Assembly (NCBI GenBank): GCA_963732385.1
Contig: CAVSZB010000002.1
Span: 64,001 to 128,000 of the forward strand
Source: an uncultured bacterium
Lineage (GTDB): Bacteria > Krumholzibacteriota > Krumholzibacteriia > LZORAL124-64-63
Length of the DNA stretch: 64,000 nucleotides
Direction of reading: 5' to 3'
The notes below the pieces were generated by a model. It was given only the letters and a program-made list of their open reading frames with translations. It had not been told where the DNA came from and did not search any database. Numbering within the stretch: the first letter of the stretch is position 1; each line of letters starts with the position of its first letter. The position numbers and the translations under genes are program-made. Below, piece after piece: positions 15,124 through 56,662 of this stretch.

Positions 15124-16074
15124 ATGGCTAACGTATCCACCATCAAGCCCTTCGCCAAGGGCGACATCCTCGTCGGCGTCACCCTTCTCAACCGCGCCGA
15201 CGACGACCATGCCGGCGATGGCCGGATCATCCAGTACGACAGCGATCTCAACGAAAAAGGCGTGCTGTGGACCAGCGGGACCAGCCACCTGATCGCCGGC
15301 CTGCGCTTCGGACCGGACAAGACCCTGTGGGCCTTCGACTGCAACGCGCATGCTGTCCTGCGCTATGGGCCGGACGGCAAGGAACTGCCGCGGATCAAAT
15401 TCGCCGACCGCTCCTTTTCCAACATCAATTTCACGGCGGACGGCAATGTGCTGTTCGGCGAGCACCTGGTCGGCAACACCATCAAGCTGCCGCCGGAACG
15501 CCCGCTTGGCACCACGCTGGCGAAGATGCCGGGCAGCGATCGCTTCGGTGACGGCCACGTCTTCAAGTTCACGCCGGATGGCAAGTTGCTCAAGGAGTAT
15601 GCGACCGAGACACACGGCGGCATGGCCGGCTTTCTCGGCGCCACCACCGCGAGCCTTGCGCCGGACAACCGGACGCTGGTGTATTGCTCGGAAACCGGCA
15701 CGCGCGTGTTCCAGTACGACATCGTCGCCGACAAACAGCTGCCCGACCTGATCACCCTGCAGCCCGGCGCCGGCGAGATGGCCCTGCTGGCGCAGCATCT
15801 GCCGGACGGCACGCTGCTGTACCTGAAGGCCAACTTCAAGACCGGCTTCAAGCTCGATCACCTGCAGGCGAACGGGGAACTCATCAAGAGCTGGGATCTG
15901 CCGGGACCAGGCTGGGCGACCGTCATCCCGCTGCAGGAACCCGGCATACTGCTGCTCGGCAATTTCTTCACCGGCACGGTGGCCAAGTTCGACATGCAGA
16001 CGGGCGCCCTCGGCGCAAAGGCCGAAACCGGCGTCAAGCGCTCACTCGCCGGTCTCGCTCAATATCCCGGCTGA
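15124..16074 (+). CDS. Hypothetical beta-propeller protein (NHL/SMP-30-like)
   Basis: Repeated F[G/T]PDG-type blade motifs; host-like codon usage; SD GGAG. Confidence 0.7.
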   Translation: MANVSTIKPFAKGDILVGVTLLNRADDDHAGDGRIIQYDSDLNEKGVLWTSGTSHLIAGLRFGPDKTLWAFDCNAHAVLRYGPDGKELPRIKFADRSFSNINFTADGNVLFGEHLVGNTIKLPPERPLGTTLAKMPGSDRFGDGHVFKFTPDGKLLKEYATETHGGMAGFLGATTASLAPDNRTLVYCSETGTRVFQYDIVADKQLPDLITLQPGAGEMALLAQHLPDGTLLYLKANFKTGFKLDHLQANGELIKSWDLPGPGWATVIPLQEPGILLLGNFFTGTVAKFDMQTGALGAKAETGVKRSLAGLAQYPG

Positions 16075-16081
16075 AACGGCT

Positions 16082-16155
16082 GTAGGAGCGCCTTCAGGCG
16101 CGATCTGGTTTTCAAACCGTGATCGCGGCTGAAGCCGCTCCTACGCCGCTCCTAC
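16082..16155. repeat. REPIN: inverted GTAG-type REP pair plus 11-bp terminal duplication
   Basis: GTAGGAGCGCCTTCAGGCGCGATC ... GATCGCGGCTGAAGCCGCTCCTAC GCCGCTCCTAC. Confidence 0.92.
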
Positions 16156-16949
16156 CAGGGCAGGACGCTGCCGTCGAAGGTCCAGAAGGTTCCGCTGTTT
16201 TCGAGGCTGAGCTGATCGGTGATGCGGATCAGGTCGCTGCCGGCCGTTTCCACCGGGCGCAGCATCTTCTTCGGCAGCATGCTCATCATGTCCGTGTCCA
16301 CCGGACCCGGATCGATCAGGGCCACGGCAACACCCTTGCTCTTCAGCTGGATCGCCAGGTTGCGCATTTCCATGTTCAGCGCCGCCTTGCTGGGCCGGTA
16401 GAAGTACAGCATGCCGTTGTTCATGCTGCCGATCGAACCCTGGCTGCTGGACACGTTGCTGATCTTCTTCTGCTGGCTGGCAAGTATGTGGGGCAGAAAG
16501 GCCTCCGCCATCTTCAAGGGCCCGATGACATTGGTACGCAGTACCAGCTCGTAAACCGGCCAGTCCATCTTTTTGGCGAACAGCTGGTTGTTGCCGCCAC
16601 CGGTAATCCCGGCATTGTTGAACAGCACATCGACAGGCTGCCCCTGATACTTCGCGGCCAGCGCATCGATCGCGGCAAGATCGGTGACATCCAGCGTCTC
16701 GATGTTCACCCGGCCCTCACTCTTTGCGGCAAGCGCGCCGAGTTCAGTCGCTTCGGCCGGCTTGCGCGCCGTGGCAATCACCTTCCAGCCCCGGGCGGCA
16801 TACTGCCGCGTCAGTTCCAGGCCGATACCCCGGTTGGCACCGGTAACCAGCACCGTCGGCACGTAGTCGTCGGCACGCGCCAGCGTGCCTGCGAACAGGG
16901 TTAGAGTGGCGAACAGCGCGAGGCTGCGGCTGAATATCCGGATCATCAT
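16152..16949 (-). CDS. SDR oxidoreductase (CsgA/C-factor-like) with Sec-type signal peptide
   Basis: TGANRGIG, NNAG, YRPSK; N-terminal hydrophobic stretch ending ARA. Confidence 0.9.
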   Translation of the reverse strand: MMIRIFSRSLALFATLTLFAGTLARADDYVPTVLVTGANRGIGLELTRQYAARGWKVIATARKPAEATELGALAAKSEGRVNIETLDVTDLAAIDALAAKYQGQPVDVLFNNAGITGGGNNQLFAKKMDWPVYELVLRTNVIGPLKMAEAFLPHILASQQKKISNVSSSQGSIGSMNNGMLYFYRPSKAALNMEMRNLAIQLKSKGVAVALIDPGPVDTDMMSMLPKKMLRPVETAGSDLIRITDQLSLENSGTFWTFDGSVLPW

Positions 16950-16974
16950 TGCTCTCCTGAGAAAGTTCCGGCAG

Positions 16975-17799
16975 CTACCAGGGCAGGATCTGTCCCTTTG
17001 TATCCAGGAACTGCCCGGTCATGGACAGGTCGAAACGGTCGATCTCGCGCACCATGTCGGTCACCGCATCGGCAACCGGGCGCAGCATCTTCTTTGGCAG
17101 GCCTTTCATGAAGTCGGTGTCGGTCGCACCCGGCGTCACCAGTCCGACGATGATGCCGCGACTTTTCAGCTGGAAAGCCAGATTGACCATCAGCATGTTC
17201 AGCGCCGACTTGCTGGACCGGTACCAGTAGAGACGCGCTGCATCGACACTGCCGATGGACCCCTGGCTGCTGGACACGGTCATCATCTTGCGCAGGCGAC
17301 TGGCCTCGACGTGTTTTACGAAGGCCTCGCAGACCTTCATCGGGCCGATCGCGTTGACCGCCATCACCTCGTTGAAGGTCGCATAGTTCAGCCGGCCGAA
17401 CAGCTGGTTTTCCATGCCGCCGCCGATGCCGGCATTGTTCAGCAGGATATCGATCGGCTGTGTTGCATAACGGGCTGCGAGCGCGTCGATGCCGGCGTGA
17501 TCCAGCACATCCAGCGGCTCAACCACGAGATTGGCATGCTTTTTCGCCAGCGCCTGCAGCGCCTCGGCCCTGCCCGGATCACGGCAGGTGGCGAGCACCC
17601 GCCAGTCGCGCGCTGCATAACGCTGCGCAAATTCCAGGCCGATGCCGCGGCTGGCACCGGTGATCAGCACTGTGGTCTGCTGATCGGCCGGCGTCGGTGT
17701 CGGCAGCGGCTCGCCTTCAGCCGCTGCCGCAATCCGGCCAGCGAGAGTACCCATGGTCGCCAGAGCCGCAGTGCTGCGGATCAGTTCGCGCCGATCCAT
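16975..17799 (-). CDS. SDR oxidoreductase with Tat signal peptide
   Basis: MDRRELIRS twin-arginine leader; TGASRGIG, NNAG, YRSSK; paralog of the adjacent SDR. Confidence 0.88.
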   Translation of the reverse strand: MDRRELIRSTAALATMGTLAGRIAAAAEGEPLPTPTPADQQTTVLITGASRGIGLEFAQRYAARDWRVLATCRDPGRAEALQALAKKHANLVVEPLDVLDHAGIDALAARYATQPIDILLNNAGIGGGMENQLFGRLNYATFNEVMAVNAIGPMKVCEAFVKHVEASRLRKMMTVSSSQGSIGSVDAARLYWYRSSKSALNMLMVNLAFQLKSRGIIVGLVTPGATDTDFMKGLPKKMLRPVADAVTDMVREIDRFDLSMTGQFLDTKGQILPW

Positions 17800-17804
17800 C
17801 CCGC

Positions 17805-18953
17805 TCAGACCACGGCCTTGATGTCGTCGCGCTGCTCGGCATATCTGGCCGGATCGACCAGCGGAATCGCGTCGAGCACCCAGCCCTTCTGGCGACGACG
17901 CGCCGGGCTGGGGATCGCATAGGCGGCCCGCTCGCCACTCGCGGCAACAGCCAGCATGTCGATTTTCCAGCCTTTGGCCGCCCATTCCTTCTGCTTGGCC
18001 CGGTAGTCGAGGATGCACTGGTCAGAGGGGACCATGTACTCCTTGTTGTTCTTTTCCGGCGTAACCATCGGGTGCAGGGCTTCGATGATCTTCACGTCCT
18101 GGTTGGCCACGTACATGTTGCGCTCCATGACGTAGGCATCGGTCTTCTCTTCCAGCGAGAAATTGCGCGCACAGACCAGGTACAGATGCGTGTTCTTCTC
18201 GTCGATCGGGCGCTCGTAAAGGTACTGGTGGATGAAGAAGTTCGGGCCCGGGTGAATGTAGGTCCAGACGTGATTGGTACCGTGATACCCGGTGCCGGCC
18301 TCCAGAGAACCCTCGCCGGCGCGATATTTCTTCAGGTCGCCCTGCAGGGGCGGCGCCTGGAAGGTGTGCCAGAAACCGCGGCCCCACGGCGCATTTTCTT
18401 CCACGCGCATGTCACCGATCTTGTATTCCTCTTCGCGCTCGCCGCTGAAGCCGTGGGTATCGTGCACATACTCGTTGTGGGCGGGATCGATGCCGTTCTC
18501 TATCGACCGCTCGTAGTAGCCATTGAGATGGAAGTCCTGCACGGTGGTGCGCCAGCCCTCCTGTCCCCATTCCTTGACCGCGAGGATCGGCGGCCGTTCA
18601 GCCTCGGGGAGATCACCGAGGAACGCGAATACCAGCCCGTAGCGCTCGTCGACCGGATACGCATCGATGCGCGTGCGCCCGGGGATGCTGGCTTTGGAGC
18701 CCAGCGACGGAATCTTCTGGCACTCGCCCTCGCCGTTGAACTGCCAGCCGTGATACGGACACTGGATGCAGTCACCCTTGATCTTGCCATTGGCCAGCGA
18801 GCCGCCGCGGTGTGTGCAGGTATTGGCCAGACAACGGGCCTGACCCTGAGAATCGCGGAAGACCACGAAATCCTGGCCGAGCGCCCGCACCTTCCGCGGC
18901 TGGTCGGTGAGTTCTGCGGTGGTCGCCATGGGGTACCAGAAATTGATGTACAT
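17805..18953 (-). CDS. Rieske non-heme iron oxygenase alpha subunit (VanA/KshA/PaO-like)
   Basis: CTHRGGSL...CPYHGW Rieske motif; ENGIDPAHNEYVH mononuclear Fe motif. Confidence 0.93.
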   Translation of the reverse strand: MYINFWYPMATTAELTDQPRKVRALGQDFVVFRDSQGQARCLANTCTHRGGSLANGKIKGDCIQCPYHGWQFNGEGECQKIPSLGSKASIPGRTRIDAYPVDERYGLVFAFLGDLPEAERPPILAVKEWGQEGWRTTVQDFHLNGYYERSIENGIDPAHNEYVHDTHGFSGEREEEYKIGDMRVEENAPWGRGFWHTFQAPPLQGDLKKYRAGEGSLEAGTGYHGTNHVWTYIHPGPNFFIHQYLYERPIDEKNTHLYLVCARNFSLEEKTDAYVMERNMYVANQDVKIIEALHPMVTPEKNNKEYMVPSDQCILDYRAKQKEWAAKGWKIDMLAVAASGERAAYAIPSPARRRQKGWVLDAIPLVDPARYAEQRDDIKAVV

Positions 18954-19065
18954 ACAAAGACTTCCTCGAACTGGATGGTTAGCGTCTGCCGGGTCGGCGC
19001 GGCAAGCCACACCTTGGTGCCCGGAATATATGCGCTTCGCTGGTCGCGGCCAAGCGGATTAGCTG

Positions 19066-20244
19066 TCAGCGACTATTTGCGGTCCTTGCAACGATGCCGA
19101 GCAGAATGCCGATGCAGGGCAACAGGATCAGCGCTGCCGTGTAAAGCGGGATGTTCACGCCGAGGGCATCGAAAAGCAGGCCGGTCAGCGGCGGCCCCAA
19201 CGCACGGCCGGCCCAACTCCCGGAGTTGTAGGTACCGAGCACGAGCCCCCGCTCGGACTCTCCCGCCTGCTGGGAAACCAGGCTGGTGACAGTCGTCATG
19301 TACAGGGCACTGCCGGCCGTTGTAAACGTGATACCGAAGACCATCATCTGCCAGGCCGGTGCCTGGGTCATGATCAGCAGGCCGAAGATATAACAAAGCA
19401 ACCCGGCGATCAGCAGCCGGCCTTCCCCGAAGATCGGCACCAGTCGGCCGACCAGCACGCCCTGAATGATGGCAACGATGGCCCCAAGATAGGTGAAGCT
19501 CAGGCCGATCTGGCGCGGCCCCCAGTCGAAGCGGGCGCCGGCCCAGAAGGGGAAGATGGATTCGAAAAGCGCCATGGCCAGATAAACCATGAAGCCGACG
19601 AGCACGATTCTGGCCAGCAGCGGCCGGGCCATGACCATGCGCAGGGCTGCCAGGCCACCCGGTCCTTTTGCTGCCCCCGCCTTGGCGCGTTTTTCCGGCG
19701 GCAGGCTTTCCTTGAGGAAAAAAATCGCACCGACCAGCATGACGGCACTGACGAATACCGCCGCAAGTCCGGGCCACAACAGGGTCGCACTGGCAGCGTC
19801 CCTGCCACCGAGCAGGCCACCGAGCATCGGTCCGACGATGAATCCCATGCTCAGCGAACCGCCCACGTAACCCATCGACTTCGCACGCTGCTCGGGCGGC
19901 GTCAGATCGGAAACATAGGCCATGGCCAATGCGAGACTGCCACCCATCAGGCCGGTGAGCAGCCGCCCGAGACCGAGCAGCCACAGATTCGATGCGAAGG
20001 CGAGAATGAGATAGCTGACCAGCCCGCCGGCAATGCTGATCACCAGCAGTGGCTTGCGCCCATAGCGGTCGGAAAGGCGCCCCCAGACGGGCGTAGACAG
20101 CACCTGGCCTACGGCGTAGAGGCCGAGGATCGTGGTTGCCACTGCCGATGAGGCGCCGAGCTTCGTCGCCACGAAAGGAAAACCGGGCAGGATCAGACCG
20201 AAGCCCATCCCGGAAAGAAGGATGGTCAGAAACAGTATCGGCAT
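19066..20244 (-). CDS. MFS transporter (TetA/DHA1-like)
   Basis: GRLSDRYGRKP motif A; about 12 hydrophobic segments. Confidence 0.92.
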   Translation of the reverse strand: MPILFLTILLSGMGFGLILPGFPFVATKLGASSAVATTILGLYAVGQVLSTPVWGRLSDRYGRKPLLVISIAGGLVSYLILAFASNLWLLGLGRLLTGLMGGSLALAMAYVSDLTPPEQRAKSMGYVGGSLSMGFIVGPMLGGLLGGRDAASATLLWPGLAAVFVSAVMLVGAIFFLKESLPPEKRAKAGAAKGPGGLAALRMVMARPLLARIVLVGFMVYLAMALFESIFPFWAGARFDWGPRQIGLSFTYLGAIVAIIQGVLVGRLVPIFGEGRLLIAGLLCYIFGLLIMTQAPAWQMMVFGITFTTAGSALYMTTVTSLVSQQAGESERGLVLGTYNSGSWAGRALGPPLTGLLFDALGVNIPLYTAALILLPCIGILLGIVARTANSR

Positions 20245-20276
20245 GGGGATCCCTGGCGACCTGAAAGACTTTTCCC

Positions 20277-20383
20277 GCAGGAGCGCCTTCTGTGTGGGAG
20301 CGCCTTCAGGCGCGATTCCCGTACGCAGGCGCGGCTTCAGCTCCTGCGTACGGGTTTGGGATCGCGGCTGAAGCCGCTCCTAC
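20277..20383. repeat. REPIN with nested hairpin and partial 5' duplication
   Basis: gcaggagcgccttc + GTGGGAGCGCCTTCAGGCGCGAT; inner perfect 12-bp stem cccgtacgcagg/cctgcgtacggg; ATCGCGGCTGAAGCCGCTCCTAC. Confidence 0.9.
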
Positions 20384-21333
20384 CGCCGCCGCTTCTTGCC
20401 GACGTGGCCACCAACCGGCTTGTCATGCAGCAGGCGCACCTGCGTGTCGTTCTGGTAGTCCGGGTTCTCGAAGTCGGGCGGACCATGCGGATGGTTGTGG
20501 CCATCCGAGTTCACCCACTGGTACAGCGCCGGACGCTTGCGATAGAGATTGGCCGCAGCACGCAGCTTGTTCTCGTCCGGATTCGTCCACGGGTTGAAGT
20601 GGAAATAGTTGAACAGCACCGAATCGGTACGGCCAAAGGCAATGGTGCCGTACTTGCAACGGAAGGAGCCGTGGTTGATGTACGGCGGCCGCCAGAAGTA
20701 GCCACCGGTCGGCAGTTCACCGAACTGCATCATCCAGGAGCTGCCCCAGATGTGATACGACTCTTCGGCACTGTCGTGATAGCTGATGTTGTCCTGGGCA
20801 AACTGCGGGGTCATGCAGTAGAGGAAGCTCAGCGCCTCGGTCATCACGTCATAGTGCAGCACCTTGATCAGGCAGCCTGAAGCCACCGACGGGTTGACGA
20901 GATTGCCGGGCGCCCAGGGGCGATCCTCATAGCTGTTCACCGAGGAAAACGCATCGGTGAGCGCCAGACGATGATGCTGGTCGGTCTCCGCGAAGCTCGG
21001 CTCGCTGTCGTTGAACATCAACAGCACTTCGGCGCCCTGCGGCACCTCGATGGCGCCGATGGCCATGCCGGCCGGAATGAAAGCGTAGTGGCCCTCGATC
21101 CAGACCTGCTTGCCAACCTTGATCTGGCCGTTCAGGACGAAGATTTCTGCATCCGAGTAACTGAGGCCGGGCTTGCGCCTGAAGCCGCCATCGAAGCGGA
21201 CTTTCAGCGTGCAGGCACCGGTGTCCTTGTCCAGGGACAGGACCTTGTAGTGACTGCCCTTGAAGCCGGTCAGGTCGAATTTCTTGAAGGGATGATCGAG
21301 CTCGACGTACGGCTCTATATGCGGTCGTGCCAC
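20380..21333 (-). CDS. Bicupin protein, DUF4437-like
   Basis: MARPHIE start, KVLSLDKDTGACT, HDSAEESY and GGYFWRPPYINHG cupin motifs. Confidence 0.65.
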   Translation of the reverse strand: MARPHIEPYVELDHPFKKFDLTGFKGSHYKVLSLDKDTGACTLKVRFDGGFRRKPGLSYSDAEIFVLNGQIKVGKQVWIEGHYAFIPAGMAIGAIEVPQGAEVLLMFNDSEPSFAETDQHHRLALTDAFSSVNSYEDRPWAPGNLVNPSVASGCLIKVLHYDVMTEALSFLYCMTPQFAQDNISYHDSAEESYHIWGSSWMMQFGELPTGGYFWRPPYINHGSFRCKYGTIAFGRTDSVLFNYFHFNPWTNPDENKLRAAANLYRKRPALYQWVNSDGHNHPHGPPDFENPDYQNDTQVRLLHDKPVGGHVGKKRRR

Positions 21334-21345
21334 GGGGATTACTCC

Positions 21346-21612
21346 TTAAAAAACTACCTGGTGCTTGCCTTTCGGCTTCTTGGCGATCTCGCTCGGTTTG
21401 ACGATGCGTTTCATGTCGCCGCTGACGTTGAAGCCCCGGGTCTGGATGATCTGCAGGAACTGTTCAACCCACTTTTCACGCTGGGGTCCGAGTTCGTCCT
21501 GTTCCTTGACGATCGCTGCGTAGCGCTTTTTCTGCTCCGCAAGGTTTTCCCTGATCCACTGCAGCGCTTCAGCCTTGCGCGCCGGCTTGGTGTCTTGAAC
21601 TCGTTTGGCCAT
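21346..21612 (-). CDS. Small hypothetical protein (88 aa, helical, basic)
   Basis: SD AGGAG; host-like codon usage; in-operon position. Confidence 0.75.
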   Translation of the reverse strand: MAKRVQDTKPARKAEALQWIRENLAEQKKRYAAIVKEQDELGPQREKWVEQFLQIIQTRGFNVSGDMKRIVKPSEIAKKPKGKHQVVF

Positions 21613-21623
21613 TTTCTACTCCT

Positions 21624-21759
21624 GTTGGAGCGGCTTCAGCCGCGATCCATTATTGTAGCGATCGCGCCTCTGCAGGCGCGATCCATCGTAGGAGCGCCTT
21701 CAGCGCGATCCATCGTTGTTCGGTATCGCGCCTGAAGCCGCTCCTACGGGCGCTCCTAC
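21624..21759. repeat. REP cluster (three direct, partly degenerate copies, one inverted copy, 12-bp terminal stutter)
   Basis: gttggagcggcttcagccgcgatccat; ..gcaggcgcgatccat; gtaggagcgccttcagcgcgatccat; atcgcgcctgaagccgctcctac gggcgctcctac. Confidence 0.9.
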
Positions 21760-22649
21760 TTGCGATACCAGTCGTTGACCTCGTCGCCGGTCGTCAGCCA
21801 CACGTCCTTGTGACTGGCGATATGCGCAAAAGCCCGCTTGAGGTGCTTGAACTTGTTTGGCTGACCGACCCAGAAAGTATGCAGGCAGATCGGCATGCAG
21901 CGGGCGTTGTCAGCTCCCTCACTGTATAGCACATCAAACTGGTCGACAATCATATCGCCAAACGCCTCTGAACTGACGCCGACATTGGCAAAAGCCGGGA
22001 TGTCATTCAGTTCGACGGTATACGGCACCGAAATCAGGCTGCCCTTCTTCACATTGAACGGGAAGGGATGATCATCGGCGGTGTAGTCGCACAGGTACTC
22101 GACGCCCATGTCGGCAAGGATGCTCGGCGTGTTGTTGGTATGCGTCAGGAAGGGCGAGAGCCAGCCTTTGGTCTTGCGGCCAATGGCCTTCTCCATTGCC
22201 TTCAGCACGCCGCCGATGATCTCGCGCTCCTTCTTCTCGTCGATGCCGGACAGGAAATTGGCCGGGGCGTTGTTGATGCCATGGCCGATGAATGCCCACT
22301 TGCGCTTGTTGGTTTCCTCGATGATGCGCGGATACTCGCGGATGATCTCGGAGTTGAGACAGACCGTGCCGCGCATGCCGATCTGGTCCATGAGTTCGAT
22401 CATTCTCCACAGCCCGACCCGGTTGCCGTAGTCGCGCCAGCCGTAGTTCAGCGGATCCGGGTTGAACTGCTGCGTGCCGGGGATGATCGCGGTACCGGGA
22501 ATATTGTGCGGAAAGTGCTCGATGTTGATGTACGGGATGACGGCAACGCGGGCGCCCTTCGGCAGCTTGAACTTCGGCCGGTCGATGATCGGCACGTAGT
22601 CATAGTGCGGGCTCTGCGTCAGCTTGCTGCGATCAACTTTGGTGGCCAT
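21756..22649 (-). CDS. Polysaccharide deacetylase family (PuuE allantoinase-like cyclic amide hydrolase)
   Basis: NIEHF, YGWRDYGNRVGLWR, IGHG, KGWLSP, PYTVELND, LHTFWVGQP. Alternative TTG start at 22676. Confidence 0.85.
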   Translation of the reverse strand: MATKVDRSKLTQSPHYDYVPIIDRPKFKLPKGARVAVIPYINIEHFPHNIPGTAIIPGTQQFNPDPLNYGWRDYGNRVGLWRMIELMDQIGMRGTVCLNSEIIREYPRIIEETNKRKWAFIGHGINNAPANFLSGIDEKKEREIIGGVLKAMEKAIGRKTKGWLSPFLTHTNNTPSILADMGVEYLCDYTADDHPFPFNVKKGSLISVPYTVELNDIPAFANVGVSSEAFGDMIVDQFDVLYSEGADNARCMPICLHTFWVGQPNKFKHLKRAFAHIASHKDVWLTTGDEVNDWYRK

Positions 22650-22672
22650 GGCTTTTCCTTTTGCAGTTGTTG

Positions 22673-23326
22673 TCAACGTGCCTTCTTGACGGCCTTGAGG
22701 CTCCGGATGTACTTGAGTGCCTCGGTCTTGCTGATGACATCGCCATACTTGGCATTGATGTCGAAGAGATTGGCTTCGTGCGGACCATCGTGCCGGTCAC
22801 CAACGCATTCGCGGACCACGATCGGGCGAAAACCGTTCTGCACCGCATCCACCGCCGATGCGCGGACGCACCCGGAGGTGGTGCAGCCGGTGATCATCAG
22901 CGTGTCGATGCCCGCAGCAGTCAAGGTGGCCGCCAGCGAGGTGCCGAAGAAAACACTCGCGTAGTTCTTGACGATGACCAGTTCGCCCTTGCCCGGCTCC
23001 ACGCCCTTGCAGAACTGGGCATACTTGTTGCCCGGCACCAGGCTCTTCAGGACCGGCGCCTTTTTGATCCAGACTCCGCCGTCGATGAAATCCGACGGGT
23101 TGTAGAACACCCGGGTGTGGATGACCGGCATTTTCTTCTGCCGGGCCAGCTTCAGCAGCTCCGGCATCTCCTTGACGGCCTTGACCACGCCCGGCGCGAA
23201 CAATGGCGCACCTTTCAGCGTGTAGCCCTGCAGCAGGTCGATCACGATCAGAGCGGTCTTGCGGCCGAAGCCCAGCCGGTTGTCCCAGACGCCTGCGTAA
23301 TTGCTGGCTGCCGTAGTCTGCGCCAT
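22673..23326 (-). CDS. Isochorismatase-family cysteine hydrolase (maleamate/N-carbamoylsarcosine amidohydrolase-like)
   Basis: LGFGRKTALIVID, KNYASVFFGT, GCTTSGCVRASAVDA, CVGDRH..PHEANLFDINAKYGDV. Confidence 0.9.
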   Translation of the reverse strand: MAQTTAASNYAGVWDNRLGFGRKTALIVIDLLQGYTLKGAPLFAPGVVKAVKEMPELLKLARQKKMPVIHTRVFYNPSDFIDGGVWIKKAPVLKSLVPGNKYAQFCKGVEPGKGELVIVKNYASVFFGTSLAATLTAAGIDTLMITGCTTSGCVRASAVDAVQNGFRPIVVRECVGDRHDGPHEANLFDINAKYGDVISKTEALKYIRSLKAVKKAR

Positions 23327-23474
23327 GGTTGTTTCCCTTGATGATTGCGAAGCGCATAGTTCCACCGAACGGCGCGCCCCGCAAGCCGCCGTTCACACGG
23401 TGGCCACGCATCAAACGCAGGCGAATGAAGCACCGCGACACGGACCAGAATGCAGGTCTACAGGAGGATCCGCC

Positions 23475-24086
23475 ATGAACACCACATCTGCCAACGCACC
23501 GATCATTGCCGAAGTTCCCCCGCATGCACCCAAGGCGGCCGCCGGGGCCGCAAACCAGTACAAGACCCTCAGCGGCTTCGAAGGTCATGAAGAGGAACTC
23601 GGCCGCTCGATGTCGATTCTGCTGAAGATGCTCGGCAATCACACCGGCTACGCGCACGAGATGAATGACCCGCTGGTCAAGGCGCACCTGCTGGCCATCC
23701 AGTTTGCCAAGAACCAGGGCAAGCTCGCCGAGTACATCGCCCACGACATCAAGACCATGGCACCGATCAACCTGCGCATGAAGCAGATCATCGAAAAGAC
23801 CGGCCATCCGGAAATCGCCCTGGTGGCGCTGTTCGACCGCACCGCCTGCCACTACGCGCTGGCGCTGACCAGCACTGGCGATGGTGACAGCCGCACCTGG
23901 AAAGATCCCTTCGGCTGGGTGCTGACCCAGTGCCACAAGATCGGCCAGTTCGACCTGACTTCGCAGGAGATCCACGAGACCTGGACCACGCCCCGCCTGC
24001 TCGGCTATGGCGAGGCGATGGGGGTGAAACTGAAGGTCACCCCGTGGCAGGAAGACGGGATGATCACCTGCTCGCTGGTCCGCTGA
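23475..24086 (+). CDS. Hypothetical protein
   Basis: SD AGGAGG; strong codon bias; two CH dipeptides (TACHY, TQCHK); no family recognised. Confidence 0.8.
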   Translation: MNTTSANAPIIAEVPPHAPKAAAGAANQYKTLSGFEGHEEELGRSMSILLKMLGNHTGYAHEMNDPLVKAHLLAIQFAKNQGKLAEYIAHDIKTMAPINLRMKQIIEKTGHPEIALVALFDRTACHYALALTSTGDGDSRTWKDPFGWVLTQCHKIGQFDLTSQEIHETWTTPRLLGYGEAMGVKLKVTPWQEDGMITCSLVR

Positions 24087-24148
24087 CTGGCTGGCATGCT
24101 CCGGTTATGGTATTTGTCTGTGGACTTCAATTCAGGGGGGACGCCTGC

Positions 24149-26386
24149 ATGAACCAACGCCAGCCGATGACCACGAGACTGGGCCAGATTGCCCTGGGGG
24201 CCGCGCTTGCTGCCGGCTCCCTGCCCGCCCAGGCCGCAATCGACGAAATCCTCGTTACCGCCCAGCGGCGTGAACAGAACCTGCAGGTCGTACCGCTGGC
24301 AGTCAGCGCCTTCGACATCAACCAGATCAGAACCCGGCAGATCGACACCGTAAAGGATATCGGCCGGAACGTCCCGAACCTGCAGACCTATACGGTGACG
24401 GCCGGCGCACAGGCCATACAGGTGCACTCGCGCGGTGCCAGCGTGCAGAACCCGGGCTTCAATCTTTCCGAATCGCCGGTCGGCATCTACATCGATGACG
24501 TTTATTTCGGTCGACTCGCAAGCGTGAACCTCGACCTGTCGGATGTGGAACGCATCGAGGTACTGCGCGGTCCACAGGGCACGTTGTACGGTCGCAACAC
24601 GATCGCCGGTGCCGTCAAGATCATCACGCGCACGCCGGGCGACGAGAGCTGGGCAACCGGATCAGTGGGCATCGGCAACTATGAAACCACCAAGATTGCC
24701 GGCTCCTTCGGCGGTCCGATCGAGGAAGGCGCCTTGGCTGCCTCGATCTCCGCAGTCTACGACAATCGCGATGAAGGCTGGCAGAACAACCCGATCACCG
24801 GTGCTGATCCCGGCGAGTACAAGAACAAGGCAGCGCGTGCAAAATTGCACTGGTATGGCACCCGGAATTTCGATGCGGTGCTGACCGCATGGGTTGTCGA
24901 CCTCGAGAACGATGGTTACAACGGCGTTCCCTATGCACCCTTTGCCAATGCAGGCACGAACGCCAATTTCGATCCGGCTCCTCCAGGCGGACCATTGGAC
25001 GGCTTTTATGCCAACTTCGATCCACCAGGTGTGAACTACGGCAGTTCGGATCAGGCCGGGACCAACCTCGCGCTGAGCTTCGAGTTTGGCGGCGTCACCC
25101 TGAAGTCCATCACGGGCTACGCAAACATCGATGACCAGTTCGGCTTTGATCTGGCCGGTGGCGGCAACCAGGGCGTGGCCGGCGCCACCGGCCTGCTGAT
25201 CACCTCCGACTCGACCCTCGACCAGTTCAGCCAGGAGTTCCAGCTGCTGGGACGGCTCGGCGACAGTTTCGACTGGCAGCTCGGCCTGTTCTACCTGAAC
25301 GAGGATGGCTCACAGTCATTTGCGGGTGACGCCGGTGCCTTTGTCGGCAATTTTGCCGAGCAGATCGAGAACGAGACAGACAGCTACGCGGTGTTTGCCG
25401 AGGGCACATACAAGTTCACCGATGCGCTCTCGCTTACCGGCGGCCTGCGCTGGACCCAGGACGAAAAAGAGTACAGTGACACCTGCCTGAGCACGCCGTC
25501 GGTGCTGAACCTGCTGGCCTGCCAGCCGGCCAGCGGCGCCACGGTGGATCTGGACGATGACTGGGACGAACTCACCGGCAAGCTGTCCCTCAACTACCAG
25601 CTCAACGACGACCAGCTGGTCTACCTGGGTTTCTCCCAGGGCTACCAGTCGGGCGGATACCGCACGCTGTGCTTCGGCAACCTCACCGCGGCCTGTGGTG
25701 GCACGCCGTTCGACCCGCAGACTGTCGACAGCATCGAGGCCGGCTGGAAGGCCGAGCTTTTCGACAACCGTCTGCGCCTCAACGCGGTGGCGTTCTACGC
25801 CATGTATGAAGATATCCAGCAGGTCGTCACGAACTTTGCCGGCGGTTTTCCGATCGACAACATCGGTGATGTGGATGTCTATGGCCTTGAACTCGAGATC
25901 CTCTGGGCGCCGATCGATGACCTGAACGTCTACGCCAACCTCGGCATCCAGGAAAGCGACTTCGGTTCGGTGAGCCCGCTGTCACCGCCGGGTGGCCTGG
26001 GTGACTCCTGCGTGGACGACCCGACGCCCCCCTGCGCAACACCGACCGACGAACTGCCCTCCAACCCGAAATGGCAGGGCAAGATCGGCTTTGACTACAC
26101 CATTCCGCTGGAGAACAGCCTCGCCTTCTTCTACGGCCTGGACATCTACCATTCAGACGACTACTACAGCGAGGCCCGCAACCTCATCGAGATCGAAAGC
26201 TATACGCGGCTGAATGGCTTCATCGGCTTTGGTGCCGACGACCAGCACTGGCAGGTCATCCTGAGTGGCAAGAACATCACCGACGAAGAAGACAACGTGT
26301 CGGGCATCTTCGCCAACAACTTCACCAATATCCGTACGCCGCTGCCACCGGCCGAGTACATGCTGAGCTTCAAGGTCAACTACTGA
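24149..26386 (+). CDS. TonB-dependent receptor
   Basis: Signal peptide, EILVTAQRRE TonB box, ERIEVLRGPQGTLYGRNTIAGAV plug motif, C-terminal aromatic residue. Confidence 0.96.
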   Translation: MNQRQPMTTRLGQIALGAALAAGSLPAQAAIDEILVTAQRREQNLQVVPLAVSAFDINQIRTRQIDTVKDIGRNVPNLQTYTVTAGAQAIQVHSRGASVQNPGFNLSESPVGIYIDDVYFGRLASVNLDLSDVERIEVLRGPQGTLYGRNTIAGAVKIITRTPGDESWATGSVGIGNYETTKIAGSFGGPIEEGALAASISAVYDNRDEGWQNNPITGADPGEYKNKAARAKLHWYGTRNFDAVLTAWVVDLENDGYNGVPYAPFANAGTNANFDPAPPGGPLDGFYANFDPPGVNYGSSDQAGTNLALSFEFGGVTLKSITGYANIDDQFGFDLAGGGNQGVAGATGLLITSDSTLDQFSQEFQLLGRLGDSFDWQLGLFYLNEDGSQSFAGDAGAFVGNFAEQIENETDSYAVFAEGTYKFTDALSLTGGLRWTQDEKEYSDTCLSTPSVLNLLACQPASGATVDLDDDWDELTGKLSLNYQLNDDQLVYLGFSQGYQSGGYRTLCFGNLTAACGGTPFDPQTVDSIEAGWKAELFDNRLRLNAVAFYAMYEDIQQVVTNFAGGFPIDNIGDVDVYGLELEILWAPIDDLNVYANLGIQESDFGSVSPLSPPGGLGDSCVDDPTPPCATPTDELPSNPKWQGKIGFDYTIPLENSLAFFYGLDIYHSDDYYSEARNLIEIESYTRLNGFIGFGADDQHWQVILSGKNITDEEDNVSGIFANNFTNIRTPLPPAEYMLSFKVNY

Positions 26387-28603: not shown

Positions 28604-29878
28604 TCAATCGAACCGCCGAGTCCGTCGAGATCGCCGCCATAATGGTATGAACGCGCTCGCCAGCAACACGAGAGTCCAAGGATCAACGCCACCACCACCA
28701 CCGCCGCCACCACTGCCGGCACTCGCCTGTGAGACCGTATATGGGATTCGAACGATAACTTCCTCGTCCCCGTCCAGGAGCACCTTTACGGTGACCACGT
28801 TGTTCGAGATTCCTGAGGGCCCCAGGTAAATTCCGCGGACTCGGCGGCCATTGATCTGAGTTGCAGTATTCATGACCTCCTGTCGCTGGTCGCCAGATTG
28901 AACATACAGTCCCGAGTACCCCACAAATGCCAGATCGCCGTCCTCCGAGACGGCCACGGAGGCAAAGTCGTCAAAAGGTCGTGCTCCGCCACTGCCCCTC
29001 TCCGTTCCCTCGACAACGAGACGAATCTGCCCGCTTTTCCAGACATACAGGGAGTCGGGCAGGCCGACAGGTTTGCCGATAAAGGCCACGTCTCCTCCCC
29101 CGCCGTGGCTGTGAATCCGGTTGGGGGTTAGCTCTTCTAGTTGGCCATTGGGAAGTGGCGTTCCCGGGGTTGCAATGACGGAGAGCGCTCCAGCGTCGCT
29201 CACGACCAGGCTTGTGGTCGAACTGCCGGGAAGGCCCATACTTGTAATAAAGCTGACCTCAGTTCCGTCGGTGGATGCACGATGGAATCCACCGATAGTC
29301 CCGCCGCCCGGTGCCGGATCACCACGTAAAGCAATGGCGCCTGATGGTACCGGTGTGAGCCGTACAATGTATCCTTCGTCGATGCTCTGAACAAATAGTC
29401 CACTTCCTCTTGCCGCCACATAGCTGAGCGGCAAAATCTCCGCAAGCTCAGGCAAGGGAGCAGAGCTGTCGACCACTGTCGTCAGGTTTCCGCCGCTAAA
29501 CCGATAGACACCCGAGAATTGCGAGGTGCCGGCAAGGCTTGCGGGGAACAGAACAGCACCGTTGGCTACAACTGGAAGTCCGAAATCGGCAAAGTTCGAG
29601 TTACTACCCGGTGCTGGATCGGTATCGTCAGCGACGGCCTGGAGGTTTCCGGACTCCCAGAGATAGACACCTCTGTCGAAGGCGTTATTGCTTCCAACGA
29701 ACGCAATGGTCCCATTTTCTATGGACGGTTCGGTGAGGTAGCGGAACGTTCCCATCCCACCAGGGATGGCAGTGCTGGCACCAACGATGCCTTCAACCGT
29801 GGCGGTGATCGCAGCGCCCGCTGCCCCCCATGAAAGACTGAGTCCAAGAACAGCAGCTACTCGTCCGAAGTTCGCCAT
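28604..29878 (-). CDS. Secreted repeat protein with GlyGly-CTERM-like sorting signal; AT-richer than flanks
   Basis: Signal peptide; GxVAFxG repeats; C-terminal Gly run + VDPWTLVLLASAF + basic tail; many A/T-ending codons. Confidence 0.75.
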   Translation of the reverse strand: MANFGRVAAVLGLSLSWGAAGAAITATVEGIVGASTAIPGGMGTFRYLTEPSIENGTIAFVGSNNAFDRGVYLWESGNLQAVADDTDPAPGSNSNFADFGLPVVANGAVLFPASLAGTSQFSGVYRFSGGNLTTVVDSSAPLPELAEILPLSYVAARGSGLFVQSIDEGYIVRLTPVPSGAIALRGDPAPGGGTIGGFHRASTDGTEVSFITSMGLPGSSTTSLVVSDAGALSVIATPGTPLPNGQLEELTPNRIHSHGGGGDVAFIGKPVGLPDSLYVWKSGQIRLVVEGTERGSGGARPFDDFASVAVSEDGDLAFVGYSGLYVQSGDQRQEVMNTATQINGRRVRGIYLGPSGISNNVVTVKVLLDGDEEVIVRIPYTVSQASAGSGGGGGGGGVDPWTLVLLASAFIPLWRRSRRTRRFD

Positions 29879-29932
29879 GCTCCTTTCCTTCACATACCTG
29901 TCGCGGAAGATATGCAGGGAGTTTATAGCATC

Positions 29933-38671: not shown

Positions 38672-39211
38672 TCAGCGCGCATTCTCCTCTTCGCACTGAC
38701 GGATCTGCGCACGCAGCCTGAGCGCCTCTTGTGCGTCTGGCGCGAGGCCCAGCTCGCCGCGTTCCCAGGCCGTTGCCAGCCGCTCGAGCGCCAGGCGATG
38801 GCGGCCTGCCGCGGCGCGCTGGTACCAGCCGAGTGCCACCGCCGCATCATGCGGCAGTTCAGGGCCACTCTCCGACTGCCACGCCAGCCAGTACTGCGCT
38901 TCGGAAACATCCCGCTCGGCCGCCGAACGGATCAGGGGAATCGCCGCGGCGGGATTCCATTCACCGCCCAGCCCCAGATGGAAGAGCGCCAGCTGGTAGG
39001 TGGCATCGGCATCGCCTGCCTCGGCTTCGGCCGTACAGCTGGCACGCACCGCGGCGATCGCGGCCGGGTCCGGCTGCGCCTGCAGCAGCAGTGGCCGCAA
39101 TTCACTCCGGCACACGCCGGCATGAGCCGGCATCTGGGCACCGAGCCACACCAGCATCCCGACCAGCAGCACAGGCGACCACGCATGACTGCTCATTCCC
39201 GGATGGCTCAT
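38672..39211 (-). CDS. Sel1-repeat exported protein
   Basis: AEAGDADATYQL, AAERDVSEAQYWL, WYQRAA repeats. Confidence 0.8.
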   Translation of the reverse strand: MSHPGMSSHAWSPVLLVGMLVWLGAQMPAHAGVCRSELRPLLLQAQPDPAAIAAVRASCTAEAEAGDADATYQLALFHLGLGGEWNPAAAIPLIRSAAERDVSEAQYWLAWQSESGPELPHDAAVALGWYQRAAAGRHRLALERLATAWERGELGLAPDAQEALRLRAQIRQCEEENAR

Positions 39212-40146
39212 TTTTTCGCGTGCTGCTGCCGGTAGAGAAAGAACATGTTGGTAAACCCTTCCCACGGTACCGGCCGCGCAAACCACTGCGGATGGATCTT
39301 CTCCATGGCCGTCCGGGTGGTTGCCGGCAGATCGTCGAGGCTGAAGAGCTTCTTGCCGGCCTCATGCCAGACGACAAAACCCGGCCGCTGCTCCATCTTC
39401 ATCCACGGCAACCAGTCGGAGGTCGCCTGATAAAAGTACTCCGTGGGCACCGCGGCCTGCGCCGGATCCAGCACGTCGCGCAGATTCGACTTCATGGTGG
39501 TGATGGAAGACACGTTGATCGGTGTTTTCGGCGTCTCGTCCGGAAACTGCTTGATATCCAGCCACTGGGGGATGCCCCAGATGTACATCTCCTTGATCAT
39601 CCACAGATCGTCGCCGGCCCGCCGCCAGCGCTGATGGAAGGGCTCGGTCTTTTCCTCGAACGGTGTGGGCAGACCGATGAGCCTGGGCTGACGCTCGGCG
39701 CTGTACTCGAAAGTCACCGGCCCTTCGCGGTAGTGAAAAGGCTGAACCTTGTCGCCGGTTATCGGGTTGACGACCTCGTCGACGATCTCGTCGCTCTCCA
39801 CATCGCGATAAACACTGGCTTCCCAGTCAGTCACGTGCCAGGTGTGTTCGGCCAGGCGCTGCGTACGCCGCAGGATGACGGTTTCGACGTTGATGATCGG
39901 CCGGATGGGCTCGCCGGGCATGGCGAGATCAAGTCCGCCGGTAAACCAGAAGTACACATCCTGGGATTCCAGGCTGGCGCGCATCTTCATCCACGCTGTC
40001 AGGTTGTCTTCGGGCCTGTCCAGATCGAGTTGCAGCGGTGTTGATGGCAGCAGTGGTGCGGCAGGCAAGGCGCCAGCCACGGCGCTGCCGCCCAGTACGC
40101 CGAGCATCGCCCGGCGATCGATCAGACGTGTCTTTCCGTCAGCCAT
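39208..40146 (-). CDS. DUF1838-like protein with Tat signal
   Basis: DRRAML leader; LDLDRPEDN, NPITG, WLPWMKM motifs. Confidence 0.7.
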   Translation of the reverse strand: MADGKTRLIDRRAMLGVLGGSAVAGALPAAPLLPSTPLQLDLDRPEDNLTAWMKMRASLESQDVYFWFTGGLDLAMPGEPIRPIINVETVILRRTQRLAEHTWHVTDWEASVYRDVESDEIVDEVVNPITGDKVQPFHYREGPVTFEYSAERQPRLIGLPTPFEEKTEPFHQRWRRAGDDLWMIKEMYIWGIPQWLDIKQFPDETPKTPINVSSITTMKSNLRDVLDPAQAAVPTEYFYQATSDWLPWMKMEQRPGFVVWHEAGKKLFSLDDLPATTRTAMEKIHPQWFARPVPWEGFTNMFFLYRQQHAKK

Positions 40147-40296
40147 TTTGGTCCCCTGTCAGCCACAAGCAGATGTCGCGTGATTCTAATGGAGGCCACC
40201 GACCAGCGGCCACCTGCGTTTGCCGGCCATTTCGCGCCTTGCAGCCCCACGGTGTAGCATCACCCCATCCAGCAGCCGTGACCAGGAAAGCCAGAC

Positions 40297-41742
40297 ATGC
40301 AGAACATTTCAGGGATCAGCCGCCGCAGCATCCTCAAGGGCATCAGCGCAATACCCGTGGCTGCGGCGCTTGGACCGGTGCGGGCGCAGAACCGCTCGAA
40401 AGTCATTGTCATCGGCGCCGGGCTCTCGGGCCTCAATGCCGCCCTGCTGCTCGAGGAACAGGGCATCGACGTACAGGTCATCGAAGGCCGGAACCGCATC
40501 GGCGGCCGGATACTGTCCCACCGCAACGTGAACGGCAATCCGGAATCCGGCGGCACCTCCTTCGGCCCCGGCTACGCGCGACTGATGGACGCCTGCAAGC
40601 GCTTCAAGGTCGGGCTCATCGACGTCACCCCGATCGTGCCCTTCTTCAACGATCGCGAACTGGTGCTGGACGGCACGGCGATTCCCAAAGCCGACTGGCC
40701 GACACATGCAAAAAACCCGTTCCCGGAGGGCATGAAGCAACTGCCGCCCTGGGCCTACCTGATGCCGATCATCGGCAAGAACAATCCGCTCAAGACCGGC
40801 GATGCCTGGCTCGATCCGGCCAATGCCAGATACGACATCTCGCTGCATGACTGGCTGGTCAGCCTCGGTGTGTCCAGCGAGATCATCGAGCTGTGCTGGA
40901 ACAACAATCCCAATCACGGCACCACGGCACACGATGTGTCCGCGATGATGGTGCTGTTCGGCCACACCTTCGCCATGATCCAGGCGCAACTCGGCGGCAA
41001 GACCTTCGGGTACACGGCCACGGGCGGCAACCAGTCGATCCCCGAAGCGATGGCCGGCGGCCTGAAAACACCGGTGCTGTTCGACCGCAACGTGATCGGC
41101 ATGCGCACCACGACTTCAGGTGCCGAAGTGCACTGCGCAGACGGCACGGTATACAAAGCCGATCACGTGATCTGCTCCATGCCGATGTCGGTGCTCCGGC
41201 GTGTGCATATCGACCCGCTGGTTGGCGGCAGGCAGGCCCTTGCCATCAACACCCTCGCCTCCCAGCCCGTCAATATCCTCCACCTCAACATCAAGCGCCC
41301 CTTCTGGGAAGAAGATGGCCGCAACCCGAACATCTTCAGCAATGGCCTTGCCGGCATGGTGGTTGCCGAACGCAAGGGCAAGACGCCCCAGGAAGTGACC
41401 AGCCTCACCATCTGGATCCGCGGGCGCAACGCCACCTGGATGGACACCATGGACGAAAAGGCTGCGGTCGCCGCAATCATGGACGACTTCTACAAGGTAC
41501 GTCCGGCTGCCCAGGGCAAGGTCGAAGTGGGCGCCTATCACTCCTGGTACCGGCAGCCCTTCTCCGCCGGCGACTGGGCCCTGTGGGCACCGGGCCAGGT
41601 GAGCGCCTTTGCCAGTGCGGTCGGCACTGCCCACGGCCGCATTCATTTCTGCGGCGAACACACCGCCGTGTCAAATCGCGGCATGGAAGGCGCGATGGAA
41701 TCCGGTGAACGCGCCGCTTTCGAGGTGCTGGGACTGAGCTGA
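40297..41742 (+). CDS. Flavin monoamine oxidase family protein, Tat-exported
   Basis: SRRSILK leader; IGAGLSG, EGRNRIGGR, GGNQSIP, FCGEHT, GMEGAMESGERAA. Confidence 0.92.
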   Translation: MQNISGISRRSILKGISAIPVAAALGPVRAQNRSKVIVIGAGLSGLNAALLLEEQGIDVQVIEGRNRIGGRILSHRNVNGNPESGGTSFGPGYARLMDACKRFKVGLIDVTPIVPFFNDRELVLDGTAIPKADWPTHAKNPFPEGMKQLPPWAYLMPIIGKNNPLKTGDAWLDPANARYDISLHDWLVSLGVSSEIIELCWNNNPNHGTTAHDVSAMMVLFGHTFAMIQAQLGGKTFGYTATGGNQSIPEAMAGGLKTPVLFDRNVIGMRTTTSGAEVHCADGTVYKADHVICSMPMSVLRRVHIDPLVGGRQALAINTLASQPVNILHLNIKRPFWEEDGRNPNIFSNGLAGMVVAERKGKTPQEVTSLTIWIRGRNATWMDTMDEKAAVAAIMDDFYKVRPAAQGKVEVGAYHSWYRQPFSAGDWALWAPGQVSAFASAVGTAHGRIHFCGEHTAVSNRGMEGAMESGERAAFEVLGLS

Positions 41743-48208: not shown

Positions 48209-48955
48209 TCAGATCCCGCCTGCAGAGCAGGCGCCTGTACCGCGTCGCCTTGCGCCCATCAGCGCCACGACTGCAGAACCCATCAACCACGCTGCTGCCG
48301 GTACAGGAACGACGGCGACGTTGGTACTGACCGCCAGCCATTCACTGCTGCCGTAACTGAGGATGGTCGCATCGCCCCAGAATGCACTGCGGGTACCACC
48401 GTTGTAGAACACGCTGGATGCGGCGAGCAACTCGACACCATCCTGGTAGGCCCTGACCTGGTCACCATCTGCCTGTCCGTCAACCTCGAGCCGGTAGGTG
48501 TGAAACATGTCATCGGTATCAACCGTGGCAGATGCGGAGATGCTGTTGTTGCCATTGCGGATCCAGATCGAATCGCTGGCAATCTCCAGCGTGGCGAAAT
48601 TGCCGTTGTCGAAGCCGATGCCAACCACAACCGGCGCACGCCACCAGCCAGCGGCGCTTGCGCCGTAGCCGAGCTTCAGCGTCGCCTCGATCCAGTAGCT
48701 GCCGCTGGCGGGAAATGCCACGCCTGCATCACTGATGCCGTAGTACATCTGGCGGCTGTAGTCTGCCTCGGTGGTCAGCGTCAGGACGCCTGCGCTCAGC
48801 ACGGGATCATGAACGGTACTGCCGTCACTGAGTGCCCAGGGGCCCGCCTGATCAGGCAACAGGCCACCGGCCGCATTCCAGCTGATGACGGCAGCAGCAG
48901 CCGGGTTGGCAAGCAGCGCTGCATGGAGCAGCAGCGCAATTCGAATGCATTTCAT
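48209..48955 (-). CDS. VPLPA-CTERM surface protein (lectin-like beta-sandwich)
   Basis: Signal peptide; FHTYRL; VPVPAAAWLMGSA..RRR tail. Confidence 0.8.
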   Translation of the reverse strand: MKCIRIALLLHAALLANPAAAAVISWNAAGGLLPDQAGPWALSDGSTVHDPVLSAGVLTLTTEADYSRQMYYGISDAGVAFPASGSYWIEATLKLGYGASAAGWWRAPVVVGIGFDNGNFATLEIASDSIWIRNGNNSISASATVDTDDMFHTYRLEVDGQADGDQVRAYQDGVELLAASSVFYNGGTRSAFWGDATILSYGSSEWLAVSTNVAVVPVPAAAWLMGSAVVALMGARRRGTGACSAGGI

Positions 48956-48982
48956 CGCGATAATTCCGGAAAATGAGGAATG

Positions 48983-49020
48983 GTGCCGGGTTTGGCTTAT
49001 TTGGCTTATTTGGCTTGTTT
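48983..49020. repeat. 9-bp tandem-unit element, copy 2 (reverse orientation)
   Basis: Reverse complement reads aaacaagcc aaataagcc aaataagcc aaacccggcac; contains the TAA stop of the 49006-49686 gene. Confidence 0.85.
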
Positions 49021-51914: not shown

Positions 51915-51944
51915 CGATGCGCTTCCTCTTGCGTGTCCTGTTGT

Positions 51945-56162: not shown

Positions 56163-56662
56163 AACCGCACGGCAACCTTGTCCGGACCATTGCGCCTGCC
56201 CTGCTGCTGATCGCGACGCTCAGCGGCTGCGTCCCGCCCGGACCTGCCACCCGGCCATCCGAACCGAAGGCGCCGGTACCGGCCACCCCCCGCCCCGTGC
56301 CGGCACCCGCACCCACGCCGGCGCCGCCACCCGCAGCGCCGGCAATTCCAACACCCGCACCACCATCGGCCCCGGTACGCGTCATTCCGCCGGTGAGCCC
56401 GGCCAGTCAGGCGCTGCTCAACGAGAGTCGCAGCCATGCCGCCGCCGGACGCAACGCGCAGGCCGCCGCTTCCATCGAGCGTGCGCTGCGCATCGAACCG
56501 CGCCATCCGCTGCTGTGGCTTGAACTCGGCAACCTGCGACTGAAAGAAGGTGACTACGCCCAGGCCGAGAGCCTCGGCCGCAAGGCGCTGAGCCTCAGCG
56601 CCGGCGACGCCGCAATTTCGGCCCGCGCCCAGCAACTGATCAGCGCTGCAAAAAAACGGTAG
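56138..56662 (+). CDS. TPR lipoprotein, LpoP-like PBP1B activator
   Basis: Lipobox LSGC, Pro-rich linker, TPR (AAASIERALRIEP); directly downstream of mrcB. Start uncertain. Confidence 0.75.
   Translation: MAEGFAQLKPHGNLVRTIAPALLLIATLSGCVPPGPATRPSEPKAPVPATPRPVPAPAPTPAPPPAAPAIPTPAPPSAPVRVIPPVSPASQALLNESRSHAAAGRNAQAAASIERALRIEPRHPLLWLELGNLRLKEGDYAQAESLGRKALSLSAGDAAISARAQQLISAAKKR

Follow-up and report, generated by a model that had tools for sequence, protein, structure and literature searches.

The described systems closest to the gene cluster reported here are the plant PAO/phyllobilin pathway, with its oxygenase PAO and its red chlorophyll catabolite (RCC) reductase RCCR, the aerobic nicotinate pathway, which passes through maleamate, and the allantoinase PuuE. 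Lower pathways of the citraconate/dimethylmaleate type, which combine a LeuCD-like hydratase, a CoA transferase and a lyase acting on malate derivatives, are a further comparison, and cyclic imide hydrolysis by PuuE-type enzymes has precedent. The cluster lies at positions 15124..26386 of a 64,000-nucleotide stretch of DNA (the window), which is C2:64001-128000 of assembly G000. As far as the accessible sections of the sources extend, RCCR is treated in plants (PMC9306834), and bacterial homologues of the plant enzymes are reported up to RCCR, which is rare, with the prokaryotic part in chlorophyll degradation called unknown (bioRxiv 10.64898/2026.03.19.712979); those sections of the preprint describe no uptake, bicupin, imide-hydrolysis or maleate steps and no downstream gene cluster. 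The corresponding sections of PMC7318184 put chlorophyll turnover at ~10^12 kg a year and give maleimides, hematinic acid, propentdyopents and bilirubin oxidation end products (BOXes) as oxidation products of chlorophyll and heme.

The likeness to the plant pathway consists of a Rieske oxygenase and an RCCR-like reductase in the same genomes, with chlorophyllase-like neighbours in relatives; the Rieske enzyme of the cluster, however, has a VanA_C rather than a PaO domain, and RCCR lies outside the cluster. With the nicotinate pathway it shares a NicF-type Asp-Lys-Cys amidase, and a gene of the Amdase family (compare maleate isomerase) is present in all five carrier genomes tested, but library scans found no other nic genes within the cluster, which adds a TonB-dependent receptor, a Rieske oxygenase, a bicupin and a PuuE-like ring opener. 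The last of these keeps the carbohydrate-esterase-4 (CE4) fold and the Glu/His/His positions of PuuE, although it falls far below the family cut-off and has HGINN in place of HGYRW. Families of the citraconate/dimethylmaleate-type routes flank related clusters, and LeuC-like genes are found in carriers, but in the window these genes are outside the cluster. All enzyme classes involved have been described before, whereas the pathway itself appears to be undescribed; literature searches on DUF1838, DUF4437 and the pathway terms, with most subscription papers outside their scope, returned no description of this gene set.

Gene content and order, catalytic residues and distribution across genomes were observed directly. 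The locus is very probably an undescribed catabolic cluster for an N-heterocycle that is degraded by way of an imide or amide. That the substrate derives from a tetrapyrrole is fairly probable. There is a somewhat better than even chance that the cluster is the middle part of a dispersed pathway in which tetrapyrroles or their oxidation products are taken up, cut oxidatively and opened at the pyrrole imide for carbon and nitrogen.

All eleven ORFs of the cluster were confirmed, and the TonB receptor, major facilitator superfamily (MFS) transporter, Rieske oxygenase, short-chain dehydrogenases/reductases (SDRs), bicupin, PuuE-like and NicF-like proteins listed in a preliminary description of this DNA were all located there. 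Eight genes run together on the minus strand, in the order NicF-like, PuuE-like, 88 aa protein, DUF4437 bicupin, MFS, Rieske, twin-arginine (Tat) SDR and Sec SDR, with intergenic gaps of 5-143 bp. ORF 23475 and the TonB receptor are divergent from this run on the plus strand, and the intervening region (23327..23474) presumably holds the promoters of both transcription units. The propeller-like gene 15124, also on the plus strand, is convergent to the run. In scans with family models, no cluster gene passed a curated cut-off for any characterised function.

The PuuE-like CE4 hydrolase (21756..22649, minus strand) scores 119.5 bits against TIGR03212, which has a cut-off of 424.6, and matches PDB 3cl6 (E=1e-21) with both active-site His residues aligned. 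Its E44, which we take to be the Glu of the CE4 active site, is invariant together with H123, W163, D216 and H257 in 36/36 orthologues, and no purine-catabolism genes were found among the 15 genes scanned. The adjacent NicF/N-carbamoylsarcosine-amidase-like cysteine hydrolase (22673..23326, minus strand) matches PDB 26st, 1nba, 4l07 and 3ot4 at E<=5e-38, and its D30-K120-C153 triad is invariant in 35/35 orthologues; by triad and closest solved relatives it belongs with the NicF/N-carbamoylsarcosine amidase subfamily. The first is a candidate cyclic-imide/lactam hydrolase and the second a candidate amic-acid amidase. The earlier proposal of a sequence from imide to amic acid to diacid is backed by the intact catalytic residues, and related clusters have LeuCD, CoA-transferase and HMGL-lyase genes nearby, which also supports it.

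The Rieske non-heme iron oxygenase (17805..18953, minus strand) has Rieske and VanA_C domains. Residues C46/H48/C65/H68, H159/H164, D156 and D286 are kept in 35-36 of 36 homologues, so that the Rieske cluster and mononuclear Fe ligands needed for PaO membership are intact. The PaO C-terminal domain PF08417, by contrast with VanA_C, had no match at E<=0.1, and the idea of a PaO-type enzyme was not borne out. Its nearest PDB entries are phthalate 4,5-dioxygenase, KshA, SxtT and NdmA, and against the SdmA model NF052579 it scores 97.6, below the cut-off of 600. The position of the family is not given by the Rieske tree, which included no characterised enzymes as references. No reductase gene for the oxygenase was found inside the cluster. 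A second Rieske gene, 34% identical to the first, is found at window 51153-53752 with an SDR and a TetR regulator.

The DUF4437/ChrR-like bicupin (20380..21333, minus strand) has 2qdr as its sole PDB match. H186, E190/E191 and H221 are invariant across 47 sequences and probably form a metal site, making this protein a candidate dioxygenase. Directly upstream there is almost always a gene for an 88-aa protein of no known family (21346..21612, minus strand in the window), with a gap of -7 to 98 bp in 47 of the 48 loci tested.

The two SDRs, one with a Sec-type signal peptide (16152..16949, minus strand) and one with a Tat leader (16975..17799, minus strand), are 54% identical to one another. The export leaders were assessed by eye. 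Both are family matches with intact YxxxK motifs, conserved in 15 orthologues of the Sec-leader SDR, which also has an NADP(H)-type Arg. Gene 15124 (15124..16074, plus strand) encodes a cytoplasmic protein of 316 aa with a weak SGL match (E=2e-4, under the cut-off). In 18 orthologues its D27, D28, H29, E113, H114 and E190 are invariant, and the product is probably a beta-propeller hydrolase/lactonase-like enzyme.

The TetA/DHA1-like MFS protein (19066..20244, minus strand) has Tet efflux models as its best NCBIfam matches (203 bits, cut-off 475). Because its closest families are Tet efflux pumps, a role as importer, as put forward previously, is not supported, and it is more likely to be an exporter or antiporter. 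The TonB-dependent receptor (24149..26386, plus strand, start at 24149 or 24167) has plug and barrel domains.

ORF 23475 (23475..24086, plus strand) encodes a 203-aa protein of a new family. Sequence searches found its own family alone (634 proteins; 133 representatives), with no match in Pfam or the PDB. Y59/H61 are invariant in the alignment, and many distant members appear to carry export leaders. The structural model (pLDDT 87.5) gives middling matches to TRAPP/Bet3, BcsD, H-NOX, VirS and PoxR/DmpR (Z 4.7-6.4 overall; 5.4-6.4 for TRAPPC3, BcsD, H-NOX, VirS and PoxR); the H-NOX/V4R-type alignments cover 99-131 residues at rmsd 3.9-4.8, and the best Foldseek hit has E=4e-3. The predicted fold may be of the H-NOX/V4R/TRAPP-Bet3 type; 23475 has no sequence similarity to these proteins and stands alone as a family. 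It is likely to be a ligand-binding fold, which is not proof of heme binding. An Atlas lead to ATC hydrolase PF14196 (0.87, with the family on 23% of members) had a probability of 0.2 by hhalign with a thin 5-sequence profile.

A DUF1838 protein from the same contig is predicted to be a beta-barrel (pLDDT 90.6). Its model aligns best with BFA1, Rv2717c and CpeS, a bilin lyase (Z 8.4-8.5, rmsd 3.2-3.6), followed by nitrobindins and CpeT, the range from Rv2717c/CpeS to CpeT being Z 6.7-8.5; Atlas gave no usable match. Outside the cluster, a DUF1838 gene at 39211..40146 (minus strand), beside an exported flavin amine oxidase (both within 39211-41739), is probably a member of the same regulon. Two more DUF1838 genes, each adjoining a TonB receptor, are located at C2:30251-33683 and C2:128982-132481.

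Conservation of the cluster was assessed from 212 bicupin relatives, of which the best 80 loci were kept, not counting that of the window itself; some genomes contribute two of them, and many of the fetched contigs are short. The cluster maps are lower bounds because the home-made composition filter used for gene calling drops some real genes. The genes occur together beyond what chance would give: the 88-aa gene is present in 71 of these 80 loci, NicF in 35, PuuE in 33, a TonB-dependent receptor in 31, Rieske in 27, 23475 in 25, MFS in 23, SDR in 22 and the propeller in 14. The NicF-PuuE-88aa-bicupin core is found in 28/80 loci. Among the 42 loci with long flanks, 18 have the core together with a total of 6-10 of the 10 tested genes, and four have all 10. 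DUF1838 is within 13/80 loci, directly after the bicupin in six. In Kordiimonas- and Emcibacter-type loci the bicupin pair is accompanied by genes for CoA transferases, an amidohydrolase, a nitrilase, LeuCD-like proteins, an HMGL lyase and a hydantoinase. On two sphingomonad plasmids, genes for a TonB-dependent receptor and a cupin are grouped with two LeuCD pairs, a CoA transferase, an HMGL lyase, an isochorismatase and two deacetylases. At window 57716-63972 there is a nitrilase 50% identical to that of alphaproteobacterial bicupin clusters, with a Tat-exported molybdopterin enzyme, an FeS subunit and an MFS protein; judged by N-terminal motifs only, what looks like a similar operon is located just before NicF-PuuE in G055 and G109.

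RCC reductase is present in 19 of the 37 genomes behind the bicupin loci. In an even selection of 121 genomes from the order, it is found in 33 and the 23475 family in 34, with both in 31 genomes, one without the other in two and three, respectively, and neither in 85. All 27 genomes of this sample that have a close PuuE orthologue (>=76%) also have RCC reductase. A close bicupin is present in 46/121 genomes (one weak match of 47 was dropped), 31 of them with RCC reductase, and CpcT in 40/121, 32 of them with the bicupin. An RCC reductase-like or CpcT-like gene is found in 43/46 bicupin carriers, versus 9/75 other genomes. The class background is 1/330 Gammaproteobacteria for RCC reductase (the centre genome) and 3/331 for the bicupin. 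CpcT was found in four of the five carriers tested and a LeuC-like gene (63-64%) in all five. Co-occurrence of the cluster genes across genomes is as the preliminary description predicted, and so is their association with genes of the DUF1838, RCC-reductase-like, CpcT-like and maleate-isomerase-like (Amdase family) types.

Physical links are also seen. In G137 and several small genomes, a distance of 9-18 kb, occupied by unrelated genes, separates RCC reductase from the bicupin. A ~50-kb island is found in the alphaproteobacterial genome G566, the only one of 201 genomes from the Kordiimonas order that has RCC reductase. This island encodes a pair of RCC reductases and a pair of Rieske enzymes (35-38% identical to the cluster Rieske), a chlorophyllase-like hydrolase, a TonB-dependent receptor, an HMGL lyase, NicF-PuuE-PuuE-LeuC-LeuD, a further LeuCD, two proteins of the Amdase family and a TetA-like MFS. 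A Rieske gene (36%) directly adjoins RCC reductase in G122, and in L033/L034 one (45%) adjoins a coproporphyrinogen-oxidase-like gene, with DUF1838 and bicupins. The SDRs at C2:51303-52109 and C2:134031-134828, which presumably resemble the chlorophyll b reductase NOL, are 40-46% identical to SDRs flanking RCC reductase in G566 and G122. Weak matches to the RCC-reductase profile built here (E 1.5e-4 to 0.26) were seen at L132:12299-13090, L167:9776-10522 and L034:5406-6362; these proteins, unannotated or coproporphyrinogen-oxidase-like, are possible further bilin-reductase-fold families.

If the substrate is derived from a tetrapyrrole, the TonB receptor would import the pigment or a fragment of it. 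The two exported SDRs, with DUF1838 barrels, may modify or hold the substrate in the periplasm through redox or isomerase steps. The Rieske oxygenase and the metal bicupin, the latter probably with its 88-aa partner, would cleave the bridges between rings, with electrons possibly supplied by a ferredoxin encoded near the RCC-reductase-like gene. The PuuE-like enzyme would then open a substituted maleimide to the amic acid, from which the NicF-like enzyme would free ammonia to leave a substituted maleate. With chemistry like that of the citraconate/dimethylmaleate routes, the maleate would then be hydrated and split in a retro-aldol reaction to pyruvate and an acyl-CoA, by LeuCD-like hydratases, a CoA transferase and an HMGL-type lyase whose genes lie outside the cluster. 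The MFS protein may export toxic or dead-end intermediates, and 23475 may bind or carry a hydrophobic ligand. Since maleimides, hematinic acid and similar compounds are reported chlorophyll/heme oxidation products, the true substrate may be such fragments, propentdyopents and BOXes included, rather than the intact ring.

Several observations weigh against a tetrapyrrole substrate. No tetrapyrrole-specific family is present inside the cluster, and RCC reductase is outside it, in a conserved block of its own that also holds a two-component pair (13/20 loci) and a 2Fe-2S ferredoxin (12/20). In addition to the missing PaO domain of the Rieske enzyme, PaO was over its cut-off in 0/5 carrier genomes. 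The TonB receptor passes none of the specific NCBIfam models, scoring 55 against 316.85 bits for the heme model TIGR01785. The fold scores are middling; a designed protein scores higher (Z 7.6) with the 23475 model, and outer-membrane barrels (Z 8.0-8.1) tie with the best matches of the DUF1838 model. The NicF and PuuE of the G566 island are only 35-38% identical to those of the window. In the order of Kordiimonas, a close bicupin is present in 13/201 genomes and RCC reductase in 1/201, with zero overlap. Kinship also matters. Of the 91 genomes in which TypA was matched, 60 (all 19 RCC-reductase carriers and 41/72 others) went into a TypA tree. On it, both RCC reductase and 23475 show 8 changes; about five independent pairs change in the same direction and none in the opposite, which agrees with a link but is not significant (median p=0.06). 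Across pair tests corrected for kinship, with one gene tree and incomplete genomes, p is 0.06-0.25, the highest value being for PuuE. The tetrapyrrole substrate proposed earlier has passed most of the co-occurrence tests, yet this is guilt by association and the association is not significant once kinship is taken into account.

It is unlikely, though to be taken seriously, that the cluster acts on another N-heterocycle (indole, quinoline, pyridine, flavin/pteridine or an alkaloid) via an imide or maleamate, with bilin-fold genes co-occurring through a detritus-scavenger lifestyle with many catabolic islands. The closest solved relatives of the Rieske enzyme act on aromatics, steroids, saxitoxin and methylxanthines, the alphaproteobacterial bicupin carriers are without RCC reductase, and similar clusters on Sphingomonas and Sphingobium plasmids have no annotated tetrapyrrole gene. 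The hydrolase pair is modular and also found without tetrapyrrole genes. Relatives of NicF/PuuE at 43-45% identity are in actinobacterial aromatic-dioxygenase clusters, and the closest pair among plasmids (62%/72%), on the Ralstonia sp. RRA.1 plasmid (L147:12505-25645), lies with a porin between two IS1071 transposases and has no tetrapyrrole genes; the segment is possibly a recently mobilised imide-degrading module. Such a substrate does not readily account for the way in which 23475 and PuuE follow the rare RCC reductase almost genome for genome, those of 1.3-1.5 Mb included, or for the G566 island. Even with another heterocycle as substrate, the PuuE/NicF pair is a candidate imidase/half-amidase module that lends itself to direct testing, and it appears to have moved into a catabolic-type transposon as well.

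A mosaic of modules (NicF-PuuE, 88aa-bicupin and 23475-Rieske-SDR-propeller) joined in one lineage and serving no single substrate is improbable. NicF-PuuE does stand alone in G087 and G054, 88aa-bicupin is found with a CoA transferase in G055 and G118, and 23475-Rieske-SDR-propeller is located elsewhere in the same genomes, but the modules stay together genome-wide even when scattered, and the operon order is kept in the 28 core loci. A variant of the known purine (PuuE), nicotinate (Nic) or sterol-demethylase (SdmAB) pathway is very improbable, since the best library matches, to PuuE, NicF-type amidases and SdmA, are far under the cut-offs and the cluster is without the other genes of those pathways. 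Non-membership of these families had been predicted, and the tests applied to the sequences place the cluster outside the PuuE, nic, SdmAB and PaO systems.

Should the tetrapyrrole reading be true, specific enzymes that can be expressed would be available for the steps still missing downstream of ring opening. DUF4437, DUF1838 and two new families would gain functions, and a widespread group of Gammaproteobacteria without cultured members would gain a defined niche. A more tentative proposal, with a little less than an even chance, is that this is the core of the first complete bacterial tetrapyrrole-mineralising pathway. It would comprise uptake through the TonB receptor, handling in the periplasm by DUF1838 barrels and the exported SDRs, oxygenolytic cleavage by a Rieske subfamily not seen before together with a DUF4437 dioxygenase made of two proteins, and hydrolysis of maleimides, and would be retained even by streamlined genomes of 1.4 Mb. 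The carriers would in that case be a main sink for what remains of chlorophyll and heme.

The DNA of the window is gammaproteobacterial, and its contig does not belong with the rest of the assembly. The C2 segment differs from the rest of G000 in tetranucleotide use and GC, and C2 looks chimeric and mis-binned: ~1-165 kb is gammaproteobacterial with GC 0.63-0.66, followed by a stretch of 0.51 GC and then by different genes at GC 0.73-0.75. TypA on C2 is 97% identical to that of G114, which is in the same order as the gammaproteobacterial carriers, and repetitive extragenic palindromic (REP) matches number 17 on C2 (20-132 kb) versus 0 on the other 8 contigs. Neither RCC reductase nor CpcT turned up in searches of G000 itself, which says nothing about the real host because this segment of the contig is foreign to the assembly.

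Secreted proteins are encoded at window 28607-29893 and 48212-49686, one with DUF7453 repeats and a hydrophobic C-terminal tail, and are not conserved beside the cluster. REP-like inverted repeats are located between genes at window 16082-16155, 20294-20383, 21688-21759, 56659-56752 and 60036-60060.

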